A DNA stretch of 56,394 nucleotides from an uncultured virus (IMG/VR IMGVR_UViG_3300031587_000158) (IMGVR_UViG_3300031587_000158); one strand, 5' to 3'; numbered from the stretch's first letter, positions 5,214 through 51,019 are shown. Notes: generated by a model from the sequence alone, not told the origin. Made by a program: numbers and translations.

Positions 5214-7977
5214 CATAAGGTGGAGAGGCATCATGATTCCGAAGAGCCTAGAAGAGGCGAGAATAGAAGCGCAAACTATAGGTATGACGATCGAGGAAAC
5301 ATCTAACGGCTATTTGCTGAAATATGGCGATGAGAAAGTGGGTATTGTACCTGACTTTCCTAGTCTTCAAGCATTGTTTGTGACTGATGGAGAACTGAAT
5401 GATATTACCAAGGAAGTAGCGAGACAGTTAGCAAAGGTGAGATAGGTAAGAGAAAATGATAGCACGAGTTTATTACTTCACAAAAGATTTTCTAAATGCC
5501 CTTTTAGGAGGGACTCCACAAACAAGGAAGGAATTCGAGAGATACTATCGCAAGCTGTGCGAGATTGAAGGGAACAGCTTAACCTTAGAGGATATTTTTT
5601 TCGCCTTGAACACTAATGAGCACCTACAAGAGTTGTTACAATTCAAAGCTGTTGTCATCGGACATACCTCAATGTGTGTTGGTGATATAGTCGAGATGGA
5701 TGGCAAATACTTTATTTGTCGATCTATCGGTTGGGAAGAGATATTTTTTGAGAAATAAAATTAAGAATAAACAATCTTTCCTTTTAAAAGAAAGCTTTAC
5801 CAAAGGAGGAGATAAGATGAATATTTTTATTATACTATCTCTTATGGGTCTTACTCTCACAGCACTTGGAATAGTAAGTTATCTCTATACGGGGTGCAAG
5901 TGTGCCATTGGAGTAATTTTTGTATCCGCTGCTCTAACAGCAAGTTGGATTATGGCTTATGTGTTAGAGAGAAGGAAACGTAGAGGATCAGCCTGATAGT
6001 GGGGAATTTTGGTAATATGTTATTTGAAGATCTGCCACAGCCACCCGAACCGCTAAGAAGTAACTGGCGAAAGATGATTCCAAATTGGGCTTGGGAGACT
6101 CTTAGGTGGGATGTACGAAGGATATTAACACGTGAGAGGCAAAGAAATTCACCTGATAAGCATATAGAGATAGCGATTCATAATGCACACACCCTCATTA
6201 GGGTAGAAGCTTTCTTTCCCGACTGTTTCTTACCTGATATTCTAAAAGAAGCGGAGGGAATGATTGAAGGACGATTATGCGATTCCTGCAAGACTGGAAC
6301 ATATTTTTTCAATAGTTACTGTGGAGCGTTTGTTTGTAATAAGTGTGGAAGTCATCACAATCTCGCCAAGTGCTTCTGCGGGTGGAATGTGAAGTCAAAA
6401 GAGGATATAATTGAGCTTGAGGGATAGGGGGCTGAAAAGGGTAAATGGAAAAAGTTCCCATAGAAATATGGGGTGCATGGATATATAAGATGTTCGGTGA
6501 TAAGCCTAAAAAAGGTGAGAAATTACCAAAGGAAGGTTGGCAGTTACTACATGTGGTCCCCGGTAAATTCAGCGATATATCTGAACTATCACAGCATTAC
6601 CAAAACTACGCAGATCTCGATGATTATTGCGTATTGATAATGCACGGTGATAATACGGGAATAGCGTATTTAAAGGAATAGGGGGTGAAATGAAATAGAA
6701 TGGATAAACAAAAAGATTTGTTGAACCCAGTGTGTAGCGAGGCAGTATTTCGGTTCCATACAATAGAGCCTGAAAAGATACAGCAAATTCTGCAGGCGAT
6801 AAAGGATGAGATAGTTGCACACTATCAAGGCGAGGACGAATGGCTTGACCCAAATACACCAATACCACTATTCGCTACTCCGATGGAATTCGATACGAAA
6901 TGGAATGGCGAGAGGAGTTATTATGGATCAGTAAGAGACAAGTACAATCCTGAGATAGACAAAATATGGGGAGATAGGGATGCTGGAAGGATAACACAGG
7001 AAGAGGCTCTGGAGCGATATAGCGAGATCCATGGGAAGATGTCTAAGGAGATATATCCAAACTCGTTACTTAAGGCATGTGCGGGTTTAGGGGACAATGA
7101 GGCAGTGGTAACAATAGAGCAGGACAAGGGTGCATTCAGGTTTAATATCGGTAACAATGATATCGAAGATAACCGAACAGGGTGGATAGAGAAGATTAAG
7201 GCAATGGGCATATCGACTGAAGAGGCAGAGACATGCGACGATTTGCGGCAATATGCACGTGATTGCACCTGTGGTATTCGGTTCTTCGATAAATAATGAG
7301 GGACGAGGGAATGGATGAAATTGATAATCTTGAGAGAATCTTATCAAAGAAGATCAAGAAGGATGGCGAGTGGGATGAGCTTGAAATAGGGGACGTGAAA
7401 GTTCGGAAAATAGAACGGAAAGATAGTGATAAGCAGAGGGAGATAAAATGAATAAAATTGTATTAAACCCGAATTGTAGCGAATTGGTGATGCGCTTTAA
7501 AGGCATACAGTTTTCAGGGATGACGAAGGATGAGTTACTTCGAGAACTGGATAAGATAGGGATAATAGAAGTCGAGCGACTGGAAAACTTCTTCTGGTCT
7601 GGTAATGCTATTGATAATATCCTCGTTGATAAAGAAGACCCCAACTCCCCTGACTTCGAGTATCATTCGTATATCAGGGTAGAGGAACATTTTAGAGGAT
7701 ACCGAGGAGAGGAAGATACTCTGGCGATACTTGCTATCCAGCACAGTCAGCATCAAGTATTTCCGACTGTTAATAAAATAGCTAGCCATTTCAGGGTTGA
7801 GGTTCTTGGGTTTGATGGCGGTAATGAGGATGGGTTCTTGGAATGGTTAAAAACGGGTAAGCCTGAGATACCAGACTATAATGGGAAGCATAAAGAGAGG
7901 AGAGATGAATTATTGAGAAAGCTCACAACTGAGGTTCCTTCAGGAGAGAAAAGTAAAACGGGAGGTGAATAGAAGGA

Positions 7978-8291: not shown

Positions 8292-8891
8292 ATGCACATG
8301 GTAATAAGGGCACTTGTATATGCAAGAGATGAGGTGGAGGCACTTGAACGGGGAAGAAGTGTATTTAACGATCTTGTAGAGCAGGGGGTCTTTGATTACT
8401 TCGTTACCTTTGATGAGGATGGTAAAGGAGTAAGTGGAAGGGATAGGTGGGGTAATCTTCCAGTGGCTGTACGAGCAGATTCGAAGGCAGGGATGGAATT
8501 AATCAGAGAGGGACTTGAAGCAACCTGGGGAGATTTTCTTGAGAATATTCGGTATATCAAAAACTACATAGAGAGCGTAGCAATTGAGGATATATTCGAA
8601 GGTAAGAAAATGGGCGATTTCGAGCACTTTGGTACAGGTTTTCGGTATGCCTGCTATTGCATAGGTCAGTACGCGGGGCCTCATATATGGCTTTATGACC
8701 AGGATGGTGAGGGGATAAGAGATACTCACCACCTAATGAATGTGTTAGAGAAATGGAAAAGCATATACGAAGACCTCACAGATAATGATGCTAAGAGATT
8801 ATCTCAGTGGGATTGGGAGAAAGGCACGAAAAAAGAAAACCCCTATCGTGACTTGGATATCTGGGTAGTTCCGGCTGATGTTCATTATTGA
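8292..8891 (+). CDS. Hypothetical protein (199 aa)
   Basis: Long ORF with SD (AAGGAG); no function recognised. Confidence 0.7.
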   Translation: MHMVIRALVYARDEVEALERGRSVFNDLVEQGVFDYFVTFDEDGKGVSGRDRWGNLPVAVRADSKAGMELIREGLEATWGDFLENIRYIKNYIESVAIEDIFEGKKMGDFEHFGTGFRYACYCIGQYAGPHIWLYDQDGEGIRDTHHLMNVLEKWKSIYEDLTDNDAKRLSQWDWEKGTKKENPYRDLDIWVVPADVHY

Positions 8892-10471: not shown

Positions 10472-11008
10472 ATGTCACAAATGGAACGGTGGTTAGGATA
10501 TTTGGCAGGAGTTATTGACAGTGAGGGAACAATACATGTAAACTACAACAGATACAAAGACAGGATTTTTTATTTTAAGGTATTCACCGCCATCGGAAAT
10601 GAGTCTCCGCTATTGATTGAAAGATGTATTCTAATAATCAGAGAAGCAGGGGTAGAAGTTCCAAAAGGCACTCCCTATGTTTTAAAAACCAAATCTGGGA
10701 ATAAATTTTACAAAGTTACAATTTCTAACCAAGAAGAAAACTATAAGCTTTGTAAAGTGATTAAGGGCTATTTAGTATCTAAAAAAGAACTATGTGAGTT
10801 AGCGCTCGAATTCCTTTCAAGTAGGAAAGAAAAGAGGAGAGCGAGAGATGGTTCTGGTAGATTTACTTTTTCACCGTATTCTGATGAAGAGCTTTCAATT
10901 CTAAGGGAGATATATACTTTGAACAGAAGAGGAAAGAGAAAGAGGCTTGGAGAAGGTTACTTAATAGAGCTGCAAAAGAAAAATGAGCAAAGAAAAAGGG
11001 TAATATGA
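10472..11008 (+). CDS. LAGLIDADG homing endonuclease, single motif, free-standing
   Basis: N-terminal YLAGVIDSEG motif and basic C-terminus; AT-rich TATA-like sequence just upstream. Confidence 0.8.
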   Translation: MSQMERWLGYLAGVIDSEGTIHVNYNRYKDRIFYFKVFTAIGNESPLLIERCILIIREAGVEVPKGTPYVLKTKSGNKFYKVTISNQEENYKLCKVIKGYLVSKKELCELALEFLSSRKEKRRARDGSGRFTFSPYSDEELSILREIYTLNRRGKRKRLGEGYLIELQKKNEQRKRVI

Positions 11009-11826
11009 AAAAGAAAAGAGTTGTTGCATTACATTTCACGGATTTATGCAATATGCTTCCTCCGTGCCCATTTTGTTACCGAAGGAGCAGGGGAGAAGAT
11101 AAACGGTCTCTATCGCAGTCATTTCTCATTGATATGGTGCCATTTTTAGCCGAAATTACTGAGCAAGTAGCTTGCGGTGGTGGTGAACCATATATGGAAC
11201 CTGAATTCATTGAAGATTTCAGTAAAGTCTGTGATGATTATGATCTTACTGTTAATGTTACGACAAATGGATCACTACCCGATAGAATCATCAAATACTC
11301 AAAATATGTCACAATGGTCTCAGTATCTTACGATAGCGCAAAATGGAGGACCATACAAGATTTTATGCTCACATTACACAAATTGCGAGAGCATGGTCTG
11401 AGATTAGGTGTAAATCTCTTAGTAGAGAAGGATACTTTTAGCCCACCCTTAAAGTTTGTGTCGCTTGTGGATTTATTCTTGCAGGAGGCAGAGCGAGTTT
11501 TTGCATTATTCCCAAAACTAACCTATTTCGTCCCCATCCTGGATTATAGAATGTACTACCTCTACCTCACGTTGAAGCACAAACATTTCTATATCGACGA
11601 TGCAACCTATTCAATACTCTGTAATGAGAGCTACAATGAGTGGAAGTCTCCCTGTCATTTTGGTAAAGACATCGTGAGTATAAACCCGCGAGGATATGTT
11701 ACTGGATGCTCCTTTGATGGAGAGGATAAAGCTGTTCTCAAGCTTGATAAACCAAGTGATCTACTTAAGATCAGGGACCTCGAGTTCGAGGAGAGATTTT
11801 CGTGCCCCCACATTCTTGTTACATGA
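11005..11826 (+). CDS. Radical SAM protein with CX5CX2C cluster motif
   Basis: CNMLPPCPFC, GGGEP, VTTNGS, VSVSYD; C-terminal C..G...INPRGYVTGC twitch-like motif. Confidence 0.85.
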   Translation: MKKKRVVALHFTDLCNMLPPCPFCYRRSRGEDKRSLSQSFLIDMVPFLAEITEQVACGGGEPYMEPEFIEDFSKVCDDYDLTVNVTTNGSLPDRIIKYSKYVTMVSVSYDSAKWRTIQDFMLTLHKLREHGLRLGVNLLVEKDTFSPPLKFVSLVDLFLQEAERVFALFPKLTYFVPILDYRMYYLYLTLKHKHFYIDDATYSILCNESYNEWKSPCHFGKDIVSINPRGYVTGCSFDGEDKAVLKLDKPSDLLKIRDLEFEERFSCPHILVT

Positions 11827-12913: not shown

Positions 12914-13925
12914 CATCCTATCGAGGGACTTTTGTAATGACAGAAATTGACAAGTCAAAACTTCTACGATTCCCTGGACTTGATAGTAGTACAACCGAAG
13001 CTTACTATGACGATACTTATATCTACCTTTTCAGCAAAGATGATGGGCACCTCGCTTGGAAATTTAATCGTCGCACAAACAAAACCGAATTTGAGTGTGA
13101 ATGTATTAAAAAAGGAAAAATGATATTTAGTTTACTTTGGAGGTAAAATAATGGATCTAACGAAACGGCAGCAGGAAATATTTGAAAAAGTGAAAGCCGA
13201 TTGGGGAAAGAGGGTCGGTGCAGGGAACGTGAATGAGGATACACTAAAAAGAATAATTGTAGACGCCGATACTGACGGTGATGGCTTTAAACGAGTGCAG
13301 AAAGTAGGATCTAAAAAAACTTACCTTGTCCCGATTGAGGACATATTACTAATTGGTGTACGGGTTACTGACTTGGAGAAATATCCAACGGAGGAGCAGC
13401 AATGAAGGTTAATATCTCCATTCAGAGCGAACAGCTCTCTAAAGAAGATCTGCAACTTTTACTCCAATACATTCGAGATTGCGAGCAAAAGAACTTCCCC
13501 GATAAGGAAATACATATCACTATTGATGCTCCCGATATGAGTGCCGAAGAAATTAAAGAAATCTTAACCGAAATAAAACCTCCCCTAAAATATGGTCCAT
13601 TTACCATTACACTATAAAATAATCTTCCTGGTCAAGGAGAATGAAAACATGCCAATATGGGAATTAAGTCCGGCAAATAATGAGAAGATAGTGATTTCGC
13701 TAGATGCCGATACGCGAGAAGCGGCAACCACTAAGGCTGAGGAAATGTATCCGCAGTATAAAAGGTGGATATGCAAGAAAGGTGGATCTTCTGATATGGA
13801 AAAGAGGGAGACAAAGGTTGAGACCCCTAAAAAGGAGATAAAAGAAGGGGGGAGGATAAAACCAAAAGCTGTTAAGAAGAAGGAGACGGAAATAATAGTA
13901 CTGGACATGTAGGAATGTTGCGATA

Positions 13926-13944
13926 AAGTAACACAGTACAGTCG
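13926..13944 (+). promoter_or_regulatory. CRISPR mini-leader motif, copy 1
   Basis: AAGTAACACAGTACAGTCG abutting repeat 1; 13 of 19 positions identical in all three arrays. Confidence 0.7.
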
Positions 13945-14303
13945 GTTCCGTGGCAACTATGATAAGAGTTGACCGTCATGTGAAATTAAAGAGGCCACGG
14001 ATCAACACCCGGTTGTTCCGTGGCAACTATGATAAGAGTTGACCCTGTCTCTTTGATTAGCCGCTCGTATTCCTTTTCATCGTTCCGTGGCAACTATGAT
14101 AAGAGTTGACCCTCTAACTGACTGCTTTTTATACATCGTTTATCAATCAGTTCCGTGGCAACTATGATAAGAGTTGACCAATAATATCCTTGAGAAGTTT
14201 TGTCCACCTCTCCTTCGTTCAGTAGCAACCATGATAAGAGTTGACAAGCTGCACCTGCACCAAAGCATCCTTTTGTTCAGTATCAACGATGATATGAGTT
14301 GAC
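13945..14303 (+). CRISPR. CRISPR array 1: six 29-bp repeats, plus a degenerate seventh at about 14340-14368
   Basis: GTTCCGTGGCAACTATGATAAGAGTTGAC at 13945, 14015, 14082 and 14150 (identical), variants at 14217 and 14275; unique spacers of 29-41 bp. Confidence 0.95.
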
Positions 14304-14441
14304 TCTTTATATCCTAAATGGTTCGTATATACTTCCCTTGTCATGGACATCTATAATATGAGTTAGACTCTGAGTAGCTCTTCTGATTTGCCATTTTTCT
14401 ATATTCAGCTATTTAAATTCAAATGATAGCTTTTTAGAGGG

Positions 14442-14792
14442 GTGATGAAGATGAAGACAAAAAGCTGGATACAGGATTTCATACCCGACCTGCTTGATCG
14501 GAAAATATCACTCGAAGAGGTCAGGAGAATAAGGGAGAGAGAAGTGGGGCATCCGATCAAGTTGAAAACCATAGCTAGAGCCATAAACACGATGGGCTAC
14601 TCAGTAGCGGGTATGGTCAGGGACATATGTGTATCCGAGATGCCAAAAACTGAACCTATGTTTTCGGGGAATTCAGTCTGCCGTGATTGCAGATTCTGGA
14701 AAGCGGGGATATGCATAACACCGAAACAGACAACGGCTGGATGGCTTGATAGGTTTGATGAGGGTTTCTGTCCCTTGAAGGAGACGGTTTAG
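14442..14792 (+). CDS. Hypothetical protein, possible HTH plus Cys cluster
   Basis: SD GGGGTGA; ISLEEVRRI..IKLKTIARAI and CRDCRFW...C motifs. Confidence 0.55.
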   Translation: MMKMKTKSWIQDFIPDLLDRKISLEEVRRIREREVGHPIKLKTIARAINTMGYSVAGMVRDICVSEMPKTEPMFSGNSVCRDCRFWKAGICITPKQTTAGWLDRFDEGFCPLKETV

Positions 14793-15074
14793 GTGAACAT
14801 GAAGAAAAAGGTACAAGTTTGTATGTTCTGTGGTGTTGAGATGAAGCTGGAAATAGCTTCACCAAACGAAATGTATGGTGCAGATGATCCTTTTGGTTAT
14901 CGAAGAGGACCGACAGGAGATACATACTGCCCAAAATGCAGAGGAGGGAATTGCGGTGTATCAATACCCCTTACCCAAAAGGACATAGAGAATTTGCGTG
15001 ATTGGTTCAAGCACAACCCGCAAGACTTAGAGAAATGTATTCCTCTCATACAAGAGACATTTAAGAATGGATAG
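14793..15074 (+). CDS. Zinc-ribbon hypothetical protein
   Basis: CMFCG and CPKC motifs. Confidence 0.6.
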   Translation: MNMKKKVQVCMFCGVEMKLEIASPNEMYGADDPFGYRRGPTGDTYCPKCRGGNCGVSIPLTQKDIENLRDWFKHNPQDLEKCIPLIQETFKNG

Positions 15075-15166
15075 AGGAAATGTTAAAGACAATAGTGATT
15101 TATCTAATCTTAATGGGATTTGCATATCTTCTTTACAGAATCACCAAATGGTATAGGAGATAAGAC

Positions 15167-15427
15167 ATGGGAATAAGTAAGGTTCTATGCAAGATCCTTG
15201 GTCACAATTATCATTTTCAAAGACGAGTTACAATCTTAGGGGATAAGGGTTATTTCACGGGATTTGAATATAAATGTATAAGATGTTACGATACATGCTA
15301 CTTACCGTGGTGGGCTCTACCACCGAGAAGATGCTTTTGTTTAAAGGAGCGTTTAAAAAATTATCGAATGAGGAGATGTCTAAGAGAAGAAGTGATTGAG
15401 AGAGATGATAAAAATTGTAGACTATGA
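15167..15427 (+). CDS. Small Cys/His hypothetical protein
   Basis: LCKILGHNY...CIRC motif, same type as the 640-891 protein (KCFFGFH...CSRC). Confidence 0.55.
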   Translation: MGISKVLCKILGHNYHFQRRVTILGDKGYFTGFEYKCIRCYDTCYLPWWALPPRRCFCLKERLKNYRMRRCLREEVIERDDKNCRL

Positions 15428-15761
15428 GAGAGAAACAGGCAATATAAAGCTTGAGTTCGAGAGCGAGACAGTCGTAAAGACCACCATCAATAATCTGATG
15501 GACATATGCGTAAGGTTGCATAGTTTACACGGTACTAAAGAATGACTGAATACATAGACATCCGGGGTTTGTCGGATGAGGAGAAGTTTAAGTGGTACGA
15601 GAGGATAGGGAAGGATGCTAAAGGTGTTGAGTTGAGAGAGCATGAAAGCGGCTTCCCAATAATAACGATTGACTACCAAGATATTCACTTGCTGACCGAC
15701 GTATTGAGTGTTGAGGAATGGTGGAAGAGGCAGAGAGTAATAGCTCTATGAGAAGATAAAA

Positions 15762-17627
15762 ATGAAGATATGCTTTTTCGGAGCCACAAAGGAGGTTACG
15801 GGATCTTGCTTCTTGATAAAAACGTACAAATCCAGTTTTCTCCTTGATTGCGGTCAGCGACAAGGACCTGATGAGGAAAAATTACCTCGATTTCAATTCA
15901 ATCCGAAAGAAATAGACTTTGTTATCCTCTCACATGCCCACATTGACCACTCAGGTCTTTTACCAAAGATGATTGCCGAGGGGTTCGATGGTGAGATATA
16001 CTCAACTGTAGCTACCAGAGATGTTGCTGAGCTGCTTCTGAAGGATAGTGCGAAGATTCAAAAGGAGGATGTGGAAAAAGGAAAAATTCTGCCTCTGTTC
16101 ACCGAGAAAGATGTTACTGAAACGATGGAGAAATTCACTGTTTCAGAATGGGATACTCCTATTGAGACCTCTCACGATGTTACAGTAACATTCCTTGATG
16201 CAGGGCATATATTGGGTGCAAGTATCTCGATTATTGACATCGCGGGAGTTGGAAGGGTAGTTTACACTGGTGACATCGGACATGGACGTTCGCCCCTGAT
16301 GAATGCACCTGTAAAGTTAAGCAATGCCGATTATCTGATAATCGAATCTACTTACGGTGCAAAGCAGCATCCGTTCTTTTATCCTAAAGAAGAATTGAGA
16401 CAAATAGTACAGGATACCTATAACAGCAAGGGTAAAGTTCTAATTCCTGTATTTGCTGTGGGCAGGGCACAGGAAATACTTTATCTCTTGAAATTACTGT
16501 ATGATGAAAATAAGCTCCCAAATATACCTGTTTACTTCGATACGCCGTTAGGTCGAGAAGCAACATCTCTTTACAGGCATCACCAGAATTATCTTCGAAC
16601 CGATTTTAGAAGTTCGTTCTTAAAGGGAGGGAATCCCTTTAACTTTGGGACACTCGATTTTGTCAAAGGACACCAGAGGTCTTTGGATATATCCTTATCC
16701 GAAGAACCCTGCATAGTAATGGCAGCCAGTGGTATGCTCACCGGTGGTCGCATACACAACCACTTAAAAAGTACATTGGAAGACACCAATTCAAGCTTGG
16801 TATTCGTGGGCTATCAAGCGGAAGGCACGCCTGGACGAGAGATAATTGATGGTAAGAGAAAGGTAGAAATTGAGGGAAAAGAGTATCAGGTAAAACTTTC
16901 TGTTAAATATATTCAGGGTCTGAGTGCTCACGCGGATACAGACGGTCTATTTGCCTTTGCAAATTCCGCAGAAATACTTCCAAAGAAGATATTTGTGGTG
17001 CATGGTGAACCAGAAAATGCAGAAGCACTACAAGAGAGGATAATAAAAAATCTACGAATTGATACTTGTGTACCTGAAAAGGGCTATATAGAGAACTTTA
17101 TGGAGCGGGAGATTATCAAAGTGATAGTAAAAGACGTGCATCTCGATTTTACACCACAATTCACGAGATTCGATGAGCAGGAAGTCTTTCCCATCGTTGG
17201 AGCACTACTGAGAAAAGAGGATGGCATTCACCTAATCTCGAAGGAGCAATATACGCGGATACTCGATGAAGCGGAGGATAAACTCGGACATTTGTTGGAG
17301 AGGGTAACAGAAAAGAGGGATATTACGGAGGTGGAAGTAGAGGGGACTCCCGAGGAGGAGATGTCAGAGGCAGTATTCAAGGAGACAATGATAAAAGATG
17401 CTCTAAATGGGATTTTGTCCAGGAGTAGGGCTCGAGAGCTTAAACAAATGATTGAAGAGGAGGGGCGAAACGCAACGATAGCACATATTAATAAACTTGC
17501 AAGGAAGGATAGATTATATCCACAGGATAGGGAGAAACAGGAAGAGCTGAGGAAGGTACTCGTTGCAGGTATTAATTCCTTCCCCCAATTGGCTCTTACA
17601 CTACTTAATGAGGTAATAGAGAAGTGA
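15762..17627 (+). CDS. cas14: Beta-CASP metallo-beta-lactamase ribonuclease with C-terminal helical extension; type VII CRISPR effector (Cas14-like)
   Basis: SHAHIDH, AGHILG, YTGD, ESTYG, AVGRAQE, VGYQAEGT, SAHAD and VVHGE motifs; about 170 extra C-terminal residues (LSRSRARELKQ helical region); sits between CRISPR arrays with cas7/cas5 downstream. Confidence 0.85.
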   Translation: MKICFFGATKEVTGSCFLIKTYKSSFLLDCGQRQGPDEEKLPRFQFNPKEIDFVILSHAHIDHSGLLPKMIAEGFDGEIYSTVATRDVAELLLKDSAKIQKEDVEKGKILPLFTEKDVTETMEKFTVSEWDTPIETSHDVTVTFLDAGHILGASISIIDIAGVGRVVYTGDIGHGRSPLMNAPVKLSNADYLIIESTYGAKQHPFFYPKEELRQIVQDTYNSKGKVLIPVFAVGRAQEILYLLKLLYDENKLPNIPVYFDTPLGREATSLYRHHQNYLRTDFRSSFLKGGNPFNFGTLDFVKGHQRSLDISLSEEPCIVMAASGMLTGGRIHNHLKSTLEDTNSSLVFVGYQAEGTPGREIIDGKRKVEIEGKEYQVKLSVKYIQGLSAHADTDGLFAFANSAEILPKKIFVVHGEPENAEALQERIIKNLRIDTCVPEKGYIENFMEREIIKVIVKDVHLDFTPQFTRFDEQEVFPIVGALLRKEDGIHLISKEQYTRILDEAEDKLGHLLERVTEKRDITEVEVEGTPEEEMSEAVFKETMIKDALNGILSRSRARELKQMIEEEGRNATIAHINKLARKDRLYPQDREKQEELRKVLVAGINSFPQLALTLLNEVIEK

Positions 17628-17646
17628 CGAGGGGAGTGATGTGAAA

Positions 17647-17665
17647 AAGTAATACTACATAGTCG
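17647..17665 (+). promoter_or_regulatory. CRISPR mini-leader motif, copy 2
   Basis: AAGTAATACTACATAGTCG abutting repeat 1 of array 2. Confidence 0.7.
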
Positions 17666-18359
17666 GTATCGTACCAACAATGATAAGAGTTGACTTTGAG
17701 TTCTTTTGCTTTGGCTCCTGCCTTCACTATCCCGTATCGTACCAACAATGATAAGAGTTGACTACGGCATGGCGTCAGAAGGGCCAAAATTTTCCTGTCC
17801 TGTACCAACTATGATAAGAGTTGACGTTTTTTATTGGTCCAACCTTCTCGGCATTGCATTGTTGCGTAGCAACTATGATAGGAGTTCCCCAATAATGGCT
17901 GTATTTCAGGCAGGTTTGCTATATCCCGTTCCATAATAACGATGATATGAGTTGACTTTTCCTACAACAGCAAGTTTCAGACGATACTTAGTTCGGTAAC
18001 AACTATGATAAGAGTTGACTGAAAATTAGTTATCTCATCTAAATGAGAAACCATCAATAACAACAATGATAGGAGTTGACACAGTTCCGGCGATTGGGAA
18101 TAAAACATCTTCATACGTTCTTTAACAACGATGATATGAGTTGATACATCATTCCAGATAGGGGCTGTACTAATTTTAATCCGTGCTCCCTTACAGCGAT
18201 GATAGGAGTTGACTTTTGGTATTGGAATGTCTCTCTATAAAGTTTGCGGATAGTAATAACGATGATATGAGTTAATAGATGGACTAGCTTCTTTACTTTT
18301 GGCACGGAGGACTTTTTGGGGTTATTGAGATGATAATAACAACGATGATATGAGTTGGA
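17666..18359 (+). CRISPR. CRISPR array 2: eleven degenerate 29-bp repeats
   Basis: Repeats start at 17666, 17734, 17797, 17861, 17928, 17991, 18052, 18117, 18185, 18248 and 18331; core YAACNATGATADGAGTTGAC; first two identical. Confidence 0.93.
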
Positions 18360-18402
18360 TAGGAAGGATTGAAATAGATAAAGGAAATGGAGTTTGGTAA
18401 AA

Positions 18403-19050
18403 ATGGAAAAAGAATTTGGAAAATACAGATTGGAGATGAGAGCTGTCTCCACTGTTATAAGTGGAGAAATAAAAGAAGAAAGAAGACGAAAAGAGAAGTC
18501 AGGTGTCCACCTACCATGCAGGTTGACAGCAGACGGCAAGGTTGCAGTACCCATTTATGGGGCACTGAGAGGCTATGCGGAAATAGCACTCCGAGCTACA
18601 GGAGAAGAGGTCTGTGATACCGGAGCAAAAGGATCGAAGGGTTGTGGTAGATGCTCCCTCTGTGATCTATATGGATCATTAGGGATGAGAGGCCGAGCGA
18701 TTATAGATGATCTTCGCTCGGAGGAAAACTTCGATAAGGTAGTAAATAAAGTGATGCATGTGAAATTGGATAGGGAAAAGGGAGTTGTAAGTGATTCTCT
18801 GGAAGCAGAAGAGATACAGGAAGGGACTATATTTACAGGGACTATCATCGTTCTTAATCCTCGTGAACGAGATTTGGAGCTAATAAATATAGGGATCCAA
18901 GGAATAAACACATTTGGTCTTGGCGGATGGTTGACAAGGGGGAGAGGTCGAGTTGAGTTGAAAATAGTGAGTGCTGAGAGGATATCTTGGGCCTCTCTAG
19001 TAGAGGAAGCGAGGAAGCGGGTGAAAGAACTGGTAAAAACCAAGAAATAG
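18403..19050 (+). CDS. cas7: Cas7-family RAMP backbone protein
   Basis: IYGALRGYAE helix, zinc-binding CDTG...GCGRCSLCDLYGS, HVKLDRE, and G-rich loop GLGGWLTRGRGRV; ATG 18403 preferred over TTG 18394. Confidence 0.9.
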   Translation: MEKEFGKYRLEMRAVSTVISGEIKEERRRKEKSGVHLPCRLTADGKVAVPIYGALRGYAEIALRATGEEVCDTGAKGSKGCGRCSLCDLYGSLGMRGRAIIDDLRSEENFDKVVNKVMHVKLDREKGVVSDSLEAEEIQEGTIFTGTIIVLNPRERDLELINIGIQGINTFGLGGWLTRGRGRVELKIVSAERISWASLVEEARKRVKELVKTKK

Positions 19051-19063
19051 GGGTAGTTACGGG

Positions 19064-20080
19064 GTGCATCCAATGAGCACTGATAATATAGCAGTGGAGG
19101 TTACAGGGGATTTAGTGAACCTTAATGAGACGATTCTATCAACCGGAGAACTTGATAGCAGAACGCATATGATGACGAGCCATAATTATCCTCCAGGACA
19201 AGTCCTGAGAGGTGCTTTTGGGCACCTCTTTTTCGTAGCAAATCTACCGATAATAAAGACATACGAAATAAATGCAGAGCCTGTTCTTTACTTCAAAGAT
19301 GCATTACCGCTCCACTGGCGAGATGGTGGTATCTTATTCCCGACAATCGTAGATGGGAAGTTTGTCAATTACCAGTGTCAGGTATGCAAGGAGATCTTAA
19401 GGTATGCCTCCTTCAAATCAATGATTACGAGAACGAGATTAGATAGACATAAGGGGACCGTATCGATGATGTGGAGACAGGAAGGGATAACACAAAGAAC
19501 ACAGTTTAGATTCAGAGTGATCGTGAAGCTGAAAACTGATATAGAAGATAATCTCAGTGCTTTATTCGCAGTATTAAGTTTCGTGGAGGATAACGGTCTT
19601 TCACTAGGAAAACGATCAATGAAGGGCAGTGGAAAATTCCGGCTGGATAATCTAGCCTATAATCTGGTTACGAGGGAGGATATAGACAGGAGGGCAAAAG
19701 AACTTCGAGAGAAGGAGGTGATGAAGATCAGGTTACTATCTGATGCCATAGTAAGAAAACAGGGGACAAATCTCACTATAATCAAGGGTGATGATTTCCT
19801 CTGGAGTGTGAAGAATGCTGCCAAGAATTTCAATTACGATTACAAACCCTTCTCGGCAGAGGTAAAGCTCATAGACACCCAGACAACAAAACCATATCCC
19901 ATAGGATTTCTGGACATCAAGGGACAGTATGAGATAGCGATACCAAAAGGGTCAACGTTCACTTACAGAATAGCTCCAGGGGCATCAGAAGACTTTTATA
20001 TTGCACTAGCATTACTCGAACGGTGTCATGGTATAGGCAATAGATCCTCTTCGGGGAAGGGGGAGATAATAATAGAATGA
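19064..20080 (+). CDS. cas5: Cas5-like RAMP with two RRM units (Csx10/Csm4/Cmr3-like)
   Basis: PPGQVLRGAFG, TRTRLDRHKGT, G-loops LGKRSMKGSG and GIGNRSSSGKG, AIPKGSTF; alternative ATG at 19073. Confidence 0.8.
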   Translation: MHPMSTDNIAVEVTGDLVNLNETILSTGELDSRTHMMTSHNYPPGQVLRGAFGHLFFVANLPIIKTYEINAEPVLYFKDALPLHWRDGGILFPTIVDGKFVNYQCQVCKEILRYASFKSMITRTRLDRHKGTVSMMWRQEGITQRTQFRFRVIVKLKTDIEDNLSALFAVLSFVEDNGLSLGKRSMKGSGKFRLDNLAYNLVTREDIDRRAKELREKEVMKIRLLSDAIVRKQGTNLTIIKGDDFLWSVKNAAKNFNYDYKPFSAEVKLIDTQTTKPYPIGFLDIKGQYEIAIPKGSTFTYRIAPGASEDFYIALALLERCHGIGNRSSSGKGEIIIE

Positions 20081-20095
20081 GTAGAAGATACTCAT

Positions 20096-20114
20096 AAGTA
20101 GCACTGCATAGTCG
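20096..20114 (+). promoter_or_regulatory. CRISPR mini-leader motif, copy 3
   Basis: AAGTAGCACTGCATAGTCG one base before repeat 1 of array 3. Confidence 0.7.
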
Positions 20115-20115
20115 G

Positions 20116-21110
20116 GTTCATTAACAACTAAGATAAGAGTTGACTTCTGGTGTCCAATCACAGTTCATAGCAATATATCCCCGATCATTAACAACTAAGA
20201 TAAGAGTTGACCCCCATAGCCTATTATGTAGACCGTCTCGCCTGCACTGTTCAGTAACAATAATGATATGAGTTGACCTCTTGAAGAGTATCCAAATTGT
20301 ATCGCTCTTTTATCTCAGCTCTGTAACAACTATGATAGGAGTTATCCCTGAGAGGGAGATATTGTGCAGCAGCGATTTCCTCGTTAGGTAACAACTATGA
20401 TATGAGTTGACCTATGCTTGAAGCACACGTTTTTCGGGGTCGTTAAAAGCTTTGGTAGTTCCGTGGCAACTATGATAGGAGTTGACTGCCCATAACTTCC
20501 ATTTTCTATCATATTAGCCTTCTTTAGTTCAGAACCAACTATGATAGGAGTTGCCCACATAAAATGCCGCCCAATTTCTTTAACTCCGTGCTCTGAATTT
20601 GATAGCAACGATGATATGAGTTGACTTCTATCTATTCTCGCTAAATTCATAGTACATCTATTCGGTGATAACTATGATAGGAGTTAGCTTACTAAATCCA
20701 TAGTATATGAACAAGGATAAACCAACAACGATAAGAGTTGACCGTTAGTTATCCTCCAATATAACCTTCTATCGTCCTCGTTCGGAACCAACAACGATAA
20801 GAGTTGACTAATCAAATCTACGCTTTGGATAAGCTTTTTTGGTATTCAATTACAACCATGATAGGAGTTGATCAATAATTAAACATGAATTCATCTGCTC
20901 AACCATGATAGGAGTTGGCTACGAAGGCGAGTTCGTAGATCCATCCTAGGATCAATAGCAACTATGATAAGAGTTGATGGATTAATAATATCTACCCATA
21001 TATGTTTTCGATGATGCATTCAGTACCAACGATGATAAGAGTTGACTATCGCACCCTTGCCACCTTCACGTCTTCACATTGTCCCATGACCAACAATGAT
21101 ATGAGTTGAC
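20116..21110 (+). CRISPR. CRISPR array 3: sixteen degenerate 29-bp repeats
   Basis: Repeats start at 20116, 20183, 20249, 20318, 20383, 20458, 20527, 20597, 20660, 20714, 20780, 20844, 20891, 20950, 21018 and 21082; spacers 18-46 bp. Confidence 0.93.
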
Positions 21111-21217
21111 CTTCATATCCCAGTCCACGTTATTGTCATTTTATTTATGATAACAAATATATACTAAATAAATATTTTCAATAGAGGTGAAAGGAGAAAA
21201 AGGAGTAAGTATAAGAA

Positions 21218-21427
21218 ATGGAAATGTTCGTGGATGTAGTTAAGGGGTACTTCTTTGGACCTATATATACCGATGGGACAAAATCTTTAGCGGTCTATAT
21301 TCCACCGGAGATACGGAAATCTTTTAATATTAGACCACCCCTTAAGCCAAAGTTCAACGTGTTCCTTGATAAGGAGAAAAAACGCATAATCTTTGAACTT
21401 CAGGAATTCGTTAAGGAGGAGGAGTAA
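21218..21427 (+). CDS. AbrB/MazE-like swapped-hairpin DNA-binding protein
   Basis: SLAVYIPPEIRKSFNI...FNVFLDKEKKRIIFE pattern. Confidence 0.65.
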   Translation: MEMFVDVVKGYFFGPIYTDGTKSLAVYIPPEIRKSFNIRPPLKPKFNVFLDKEKKRIIFELQEFVKEEE

Positions 21428-29251: not shown

Positions 29252-29325
29252 GGGATAGTAGCCAAGCGGACTAAGGCGGAGGTCTCCAGAGCCTCATATC
29301 GTGGGTTCGAATCCTACCTATCCCA
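29252..29325 (+). tRNA. tRNA-Trp (CCA), intronless
   Basis: GGGATAG/CTATCCC acceptor, GCC/GGC D-stem, GAGGT-CTCCAGA-GCCTC anticodon arm, GTGGG-TTCGAAT-CCTAC T-arm, discriminator A. Confidence 0.92.
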
Positions 29326-49886: not shown

Positions 49887-50906
49887 GGAGAGAGAAAATG
49901 CACGGCTTTGAAGACTTTGTTTCGGGAATAAAGGATGTAAAAAAGGAATTTGGTATACTGAATGGCAAGATGGATGAACTCAATCAGCACGTAGCCGAGC
50001 TGATTGGTGCAACTAAGGATAATACCAAGGTAAAGGAGGAGCTGACAGTAGCAATCCGGGACCTCATCAGGGTTACAAAGGAGAGGAAAGGTTGATAAAA
50101 TGGTTAAGTTGTTTGGAGTTTCGATACTGTCTTGGATAATCTTCACAATATCAGTATCTCTCTTTATTACCGGTATAGGCTGTACATTAGCTTATCCCTT
50201 TATGATGCATGAGCCACAGTCTCAATGGATATATCTCTTAGCATGGTGGTATTGGCTTTTAGCAGGGATAGTAGGTTGTTTGATATTTATTGCGTACTTT
50301 AAGTTCGTCGATCGTCGAAGTTAGGAGAAGAAAGGATGATAGATGTAAGCGAACTAAAGAAAAAGAGGATTGAGACCCGAAGGGAAATAATAGAGTTTCT
50401 TCGGATGAATAGAGGAAAAGCCTTTACACGTGATGAAATACACGTGAATACAGGACATGCCCCCGATTATATGAGACAACCTACGTTTGGTTTTGATAGC
50501 TACACCTTTGAAGATGGTTACTATTACTACAAATATAACAAGCTAATGGTCTTCTTCGTTTTAATTCCGATGGTTATTGGATTAATAGGGATATTGTTAA
50601 GAGGGGTGACATGAATGGATGAAAGAGAAAGGGAGAGGATAGCTGAACTCGTGAAAGAGGTACAAACGAATACCGCATTTGGCAGTGTTTCAAGCAAATA
50701 CCTATGCCCTGAGCATAATTGCTTTCTCGTGTGTGATGCTGTTAGTATTGAACTACAAATAGGAGAAAAGAAATACCCTTATGCTTGCGATTATCGAGTA
50801 TTATGGCGGTGCAACGAGTGTAATCGAACCATAGTTAAGGTTAGGGAAGATTAGGTGGTGAGGTGATAAGATAAACTTTAAATGCTTTCCCTTCTAATTT
50901 ATTTAT

Positions 50907-50989
50907 CACCGGGGAGAGATTCGAACTCTCGAGGGGGGAAGCCCCAGCCACTCCCAAGGTGGCTGCATTGCCAATTCCGCCACCCCGGT
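50907..50989 (-). tRNA. Class II (long variable arm) tRNA with TGG (Pro) anticodon on a Ser/Leu-type body
   Basis: ACCGGGG TG GCGGAATTGGCAATGC A GCCAC-CTTGGGA-GTGGC, variable arm TGGGGCTTCCCCCCTC, GAGAG-TTCGAAT-CTCTC, CCCGGT G. Confidence 0.75.
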
Positions 50990-51019
50990 ATCTTTTTATA
51001 TAATATTGAGGGGGAAAAT

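Follow-up and report, generated by a model that had tools for sequence, protein, structure and literature searches.

The window analysed here, a stretch of 56,394 nucleotides (nt) from an uncultured virus (IMGVR_UViG_3300031587_000158), very probably carries a type VII CRISPR-Cas locus that targets RNA and whose + strand arrays hold spacers antisense to transcripts. Judged by the identity of its predicted Cas14, Cas7 and Cas5 proteins, the locus is of type VII, and its spacers resemble antisense coding sequence in both composition and codon structure. All parts of the locus lie on the + strand, in the order leader and array 1, three small open reading frames (ORFs), cas14, leader and array 2, cas7, cas5, and leader and array 3:

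13875-13944, + strand, leader of array 1, from an alignment of the three upstream regions and a related metagenome locus (L002); direct-repeat families D5, D7 and D11
13945-14367, + strand, CRISPR array 1, 7 repeats of 29 nt and 6 spacers of 29-41 nt
14442-14792, 14793-15074 and 15167-15427, + strand, three small ORFs of 116, 93 and 86 amino acids (aa)
15762-17627, + strand, cas14, 621 aa, a beta-CASP metallo-beta-lactamase RNase with a Cas14 C-terminal domain
17596-17665, + strand, leader of array 2, from the upstream-region alignment
17666-18359, + strand, CRISPR array 2, 11 repeats and 10 spacers of 32-54 nt
18394-19050, + strand, type VII cas7, 218 aa, matching PDB 21bh_B (E 3.8e-46) over residues 6-194
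19064-20080, + strand, type VII cas5, 338 aa, matching PDB 21bh_G (E 2e-7) over residues 42-201
20046-20115, + strand, leader of array 3, from the upstream-region alignment; direct-repeat family D11
20116-21110, + strand, CRISPR array 3, 16 repeats and 15 spacers of 18-46 nt

What does the composition of the spacers reveal? A first-pass annotation, made from the sequence alone, had pointed to the interval 13974..21081, which does begin with the first base of the first spacer and end where the last full spacer ends, and had described pyrimidine-rich spacers on a purine-rich + strand. This description proved accurate: the purine fraction of the 31 spacers has a mean of 0.416 (standard deviation 0.104), with 22 spacers below 0.5, one at 0.5 and eight above it, compared with 0.578 in 1501 36-mers taken from the + strand outside the arrays. 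The spacers differ both from 0.5 (t-test, p=9e-5; sign test of 22 versus 8, p=0.016) and from the + strand 36-mers (Mann-Whitney, p=2.7e-11), and they are indistinguishable from the complement of these 36-mers (0.422, p=0.82). The other sequence classes of the + strand are purine-rich (ORF-covered sequence, 0.573; intergenic sequence, 0.600; repeats, 0.572). When only the first 30 nt of the spacers are considered, 20 of 28 remain below 0.5 (p=0.0013), and the bias holds wherever the boundary with the variable 5′ end of the next repeat is drawn. The per-spacer check that the annotation had proposed reveals the bias in every array, with means of 0.367 in array 1 (5/6 spacers below 0.5), 0.443 in array 2 (6/10) and 0.417 in array 3 (11/15). 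The antisense share calculated from the purine mean is 1.04 (0.81-1.27). The pooled G+C content of the spacers, 0.40, is consistent with targets that resemble the window in composition.

Codon usage leads to the same estimate by another route. A codon-frequency model was trained on 71 ORFs of the window; in cross-validation it identified the correct strand for 82% of 1002 held-out, spacer-sized fragments of window genes. Applied to the arrays, it called 26 of the 31 spacers antisense. Once its error rate is corrected for, the antisense share comes to 1.03 (95% interval, 0.76-1.20), which implies that at least about 76% of the spacers, and at best all of them, are antisense. The coding score of the reverse strand of the spacers lies 4.4 standard deviations above that of mononucleotide shuffles, none of 300 shuffles scoring as high, and five control sets of real antisense fragments behaved in the same manner; therefore, the spacers contain codon structure on their reverse strand beyond the base skew. 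The six reverse-complement peptides quoted in the first-pass annotation were reproduced exactly as the best-scoring reverse-strand frames. Its caveat that short open frames are weak evidence was well founded, because an open frame exists in 30 of the 31 spacers in the forward direction and in 30 of 31 in the reverse direction, and we dropped open frames as evidence of antisense orientation.

On what does the assignment to type VII rest? Cas14, the signature effector of this type, is a fusion of a beta-CASP RNase with a Cas10-like C-terminal domain. The Cas14 of the window scores 947.9 bits against NCBIfam NF045584 (cas14_MBL_CASP; cut-off, 800), with residues 1-621 aligned to positions 1-612 of the 612 in the model, and its best PDB match is the type VII Cas14 8yhd_H (E 7.6e-83), over residues 3-583, a span that reaches past the beta-CASP domain. 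Its Pfam families are Beta-Casp, Lactamase_B and RMMBL. The metal-binding HxHxDH motif, which is the motif mutated in the published inactive Cas14 control, is intact (SHAHIDHSG, aligned to THAHLDHSG of the solved Cas14) and is invariant or nearly so across 18 close homologues. Cas7 and Cas5 score 24.3 and 25.9 bits, respectively, against Pfam RAMPs; the alignment of Cas5 to 21bh_G spans just 160 of its 338 residues, and a weak match to Csx10, the Cas5 of type III-D, is found in its C-terminal part (residues 289-337). None of the 79 ORFs in the window, which forms part of a 118-kb contig, matched Cas1, Cas2, Cas6 or a reverse transcriptase in NCBIfam, and no match to a Cas10 family, the criterion for type III, was found among them. 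The three small ORFs at 14442-15427 have no family in Pfam, PHROGs or NCBIfam, yielded only sub-threshold leads in the Atlas, and have no counterpart in L002; the lead for the first of them (14442-14792) is to a helix-turn-helix protein.

A short conserved leader lies upstream of each array and consists of an ATAATA-type box, located about 55 nt upstream in leader 1, and an AAGTAA..CA.AGTCGG block that abuts the first repeat. The leaders overlap the 3′ ends of the preceding genes, namely an ORF at 13592-13912 (leader 1), cas14 (leader 2) and cas5 (leader 3). The predicted + orientation of the arrays, which the first-pass annotation had also favoured, is supported by these leaders on the left side, by the decay of the repeats at the 3′ ends, by the common direction of the arrays and the cas genes, and by the layout of the type VII reference locus. 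The annotation had further proposed RNA targeting, and this agrees with the presence of cas14, cas7 and cas5, in that crRNA (CRISPR RNA)-guided RNA cleavage by Cas14 in vitro is described by Altae-Tran et al. 2023 (PMC10910872), who defined type VII. A scan for bacterial promoters and terminators is uninformative here, the sequence being archaeal.

The three arrays together comprise 34 repeats and 31 spacers, 25 of which are 32-41 nt long, the remaining six measuring 18, 25, 29, 30, 46 and 54 nt. The 29-nt repeat has the consensus GTTCAGTAACAACnATGATAnGAGTTGAC. Its 3′ 20 nt are near-invariant save for positions 14 and 21, and its 5′ 9 nt vary among the copies. Within the otherwise invariant part, positions 14 (T, G, A or C) and 21 (A, T or G) vary freely, as if these bases were free of contacts. 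Copies 1-4 of array 1 are identical and its final copy is strongly decayed; the decay affects the final two repeats of array 2, and several units of array 3 have a shortened length or decayed repeats. One or two terminal repeats are badly decayed in each array. A 4-bp hairpin in the repeat (positions 10-13 with 24-27) is paired in 97.3% of cases, but we do not claim it, its energy being weak and only two double-sided changes being present. Both of these changes in the putative stem are C-G to U-A. Rfam contains no family for the repeats, a tRNA being the sole match, and a search of IMG/VR with the repeat core pattern returned three single matches and no array, which we judged to be about the number expected by chance.

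How closely does the locus resemble known systems? In PMC10910872, the reference locus Ga0116245_10002768, the crRNA of which was sequenced, is arranged as cas6-cas14-cas7-cas5-array, with a 29-nt direct repeat and 35-44-nt spacers on the cas strand; its spacers, listed in Data S5, appear T-rich by eye, and some are duplicated. As in this reference and in the type VII structures (8yhd, 8z4j and others), cas14, cas7 and cas5 are all present in the window; as in the reference, the repeat is 29 nt long, the spacers are about 36 nt long, and an array on the cas strand lies downstream of cas5. The same source describes degenerate repeats, a lack of adaptation genes and a pronounced antisense bias of the protospacers for type VII, and frequent substitution of the repeats and infrequent spacer acquisition are described in PMC12669027; the window likewise has substituted repeats, spacers that are antisense-biased by composition and codon usage, and no adaptation module. 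In contrast to the reference, in which one array follows cas5, the window has three interleaved arrays with their own leaders, and it lacks the cas6 gene that lies upstream of cas14 in the reference. It also contains the three extra small ORFs, its Cas5 is about 100 aa longer than the solved type VII Cas5 (338 versus 240 aa), and its repeat and that of the reference are only loosely alike by eye. With type III, especially III-D, and type VI, the locus would share RNA targeting, for which useful spacers are antisense to transcripts; its Cas7 and Cas5 are RAMP proteins, the latter with the weak match to Csx10 of III-D. Unlike types III and VI, however, the window has no Cas10, Cas11 or HEPN effector, and the nuclease is a beta-CASP protein.

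A closer relative is the metagenome locus L002, whose Cas14 is 72% identical to that of the window and in which cas14 is immediately followed by an array whose repeats belong to the family seen in the window. Its spacers are also pyrimidine-rich (seven of eight with a purine fraction below 0.5; mean, 0.40), and none is shared with the window. L002 lies amid housekeeping-type genes (PAC2, Elp3-like), whereas the locus of the window is surrounded by one-directional small ORFs without a family, DNA methylases and HNH nucleases. In L002, a repeat-spacer-repeat unit is duplicated (7827-7914 and 8356-8443, 94% identical), as is also the case, by eye, in the reference array; type VII arrays seem to grow partly through internal duplication. 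L002 was the only Cas14 locus among 80 loci kept from a Cas14 profile search of metagenome contigs, the patterns having fallen on generic beta-CASP motifs. The same search found no close relative in genome contigs, which gave one irrelevant cyanobacterial match, or in viral contigs.

We propose that the system would work as follows. The arrays would be transcribed rightwards, and the pre-crRNA would be cut within the repeats, presumably by a nuclease encoded elsewhere because no Cas6 is encoded in the window. In the type VII structures (PMC11786720 and PMC13069675), Cas5 sits on the 5′ handle, seven copies of Cas7 are present, and a Cas14 tetramer is recruited by the target RNA. By analogy, Cas5 would cap the 5′ handle, formed by the repeat's conserved 3′ part, and about seven copies of Cas7 would coat the spacer of about 36 nt. 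The pairing of a complementary mRNA would then recruit the Cas14 tetramer, which would cut that RNA. Only spacers antisense to transcripts could function in this way, and pyrimidine-rich spacers would therefore be expected on a purine-rich strand. The antisense bias might reflect either the retention of useful spacers, in line with the selection proposed in the first-pass annotation, or a directional route of acquisition.

Several points weigh against the reading of these arrays as sets of antisense, RNA-targeting guides. The direction of transcription of the arrays and their activity are themselves inferred. The arrays may also be partly dead, given the decayed units (mutated terminal repeats; spacers of 18, 25, 29 and 30 nt). 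Eight of the 31 spacers are purine-rich, and five are called sense-like by the codon model, yet five is the number expected from the error rate of the classifier. The forward strand of the spacers also scores slightly above its shuffles, 2 of 300 scoring as high. Moreover, the composition and codon tests presuppose targets that have the purine-loaded coding strand and the codon usage of the window. Finally, all searches of sequence collections for protospacers were blank, and one candidate was found, in a single metagenome run. Within the window, the best match to a spacer was 15/17 nt; blastn of the whole locus against 50,697 phage and 72,556 plasmid records gave chance matches only (E 0.6); and in IMG/VR viral contigs, one exact spacer and three patterns masked at third codon positions had no match. 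A comparison of 39 spacers (31 from the window and 8 from L002) with 84 loci and the window, and then with five more loci, gave a longest match of 18/19 nt, the internal duplicate of L002 being set aside.

The candidate comes from X2, one of two sediment metagenome runs that carry the locus and the one that derives from a separate study. In X2, a contig contains the sequence of spacer 14179-14216 between flanks of 27 and 85 letters. These flanks are unlike the repeat and, by eye, are not complementary to the ends of the crRNA that derive from it. The reverse strand of the contig is open across the visible letters, as judged by hand translation, in the frame that the codon model assigned to this spacer. 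However, this contig is a fragment of about 150 nt in which one forward-strand frame is likewise open, over 29 codons, and the candidate therefore supports the antisense orientation only weakly.

Could the arrays be relics, without uptake or interference, whose skew was left behind by past activity or by array growth through internal duplication? We consider this unlikely, although the repeats carry many substitutions and several units have been shortened, repeat-spacer units are duplicated in L002 and in the reference array, and acquisition is infrequent according to the literature cited above (PMC12669027). In addition, X2 covers 13600-21300 at low depth with near-identical arrays that differ by a single base (G>T at 20911 in array 3), and no spacer turnover is therefore visible; three further variant positions in X2, at 15571-15634, fall in the spacer-free region ahead of cas14. 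In contrast, no spacer is duplicated inside the window, the three cas genes are intact and Cas14 has kept its catalytic motif, and the presence of matching sequence in a contemporary metagenome also argues against a relic. The retention of the 3′ 20 nt of the repeat while its 5′ 9 nt drift resembles purifying selection on a crRNA handle.

The bias might instead be a by-product of acquisition, arising either from uptake in a fixed orientation from one-directional, purine-rich replicons or from copying of RNA, without selection for pairing with mRNA. The window is itself such a replicon, nearly all of its ORFs lying on one strand; it contains no adaptation genes that would reveal how spacers enter, and an antisense share near 100% is equally expected from a directional route and from selection. 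Yet uptake in a fixed orientation relative to the replicon should, across different sources, yield antisense spacers only half of the time, whereas the three arrays and L002 all point the same way. Furthermore, no RNA-copying enzyme is encoded in the window, and the effector is an RNA nuclease, the function of which demands the antisense orientation; on balance, we regard an acquisition by-product as decidedly improbable. The idea that the arrays are read from the - strand, giving purine-rich sense crRNAs that act on DNA or on antisense transcripts, gains some room from the weakly structured repeat, the folding of which provides no cue to orientation. It is nevertheless extremely improbable: conserved leaders precede every array on the left and decayed repeats end it on the right, the cas genes are co-directional, and Cas14 is an RNase. 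The reference locus, with its sequenced crRNA, also speaks against it, because its repeat is equally long and is oriented in the same way with respect to cas5.

If the locus is, as we favour, a type VII system with antisense guides, it adds a well-preserved and spacer-rich example (31 spacers in three arrays), from an ANME-1 neighbourhood, to a rare type of which few loci are known. It also shows that, for RNA-targeting spacers, composition and codon usage suffice to tell the antisense orientation when the databases contain no protospacer. Because the antisense bias and its meaning were published in 2023, the locus confirms the established picture rather than changing it. It touches on the question of how spacers in the right orientation reach a system that lacks Cas1-Cas2. 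The spacers of the reference type VII locus are reported to be mainly against transposon genes; for the window, the protospacer searches recovered no annotated target. We speculate, as a rather doubtful extension, that an ANME-1-type archaeon carries the present locus on an island or mobile element, where 31 guides with the codon usage of the element would silence host transcripts or those of rival elements, not of transposons, their near-total antisense orientation, in a system lacking adaptation genes, resulting from directional, transcript-linked acquisition and not from simple retention.

The relatives of Cas14 (71-75% identity) and of an MCM protein encoded at the end of the window (64-71% identity) are found in metagenome-assembled genomes of Methanophagales (ANME-1) and Methanosarcinales. 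A full-text search found no paper joining ANME-1 with type VII or with Cas14. Small ORFs without a family, on one strand, make up most of the window, nearly all ORFs in 1-45000 being on the + strand; a phage-type helicase is present among them, and the following genes have recognizable families:

8898, 21679, 31524 and 51742, methyltransferases
10472 and 41270, HNH nucleases
52304, PD-(D/E)XK nuclease
33911, helicase with HNH repeats
23792, DUF5131
7978 and 22864, two ArsR-type regulators

Between 45000 and 56394, the G+C content reaches 0.43-0.46, up from about 0.39, with a brief flip of the GC skew at 45-47 kb. Past about 45 kb, the genes are of a cellular type: a polyprenyl synthase and the gene beside it lie on the - strand, and an Mrp/NUBPL ATPase is present together with MCM, which is cut by the end of the window. 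A position near 45 kb may mark the boundary of an element. The region 1-45000 resembles a mobile element or island, and an island or integrated element is plausible. A radical SAM protein (11005-11826) has prokaryotic viperin as its best NCBIfam match, at 51 bits and far below the cut-off of 180. A tRNA-Pro was called by ARAGORN at 50906-50990 on the - strand and was not confirmed by Rfam. A tRNA-Trp (CCA), confirmed by Rfam, lies at 29252-29325, in the middle of the region of hypothetical ORFs.

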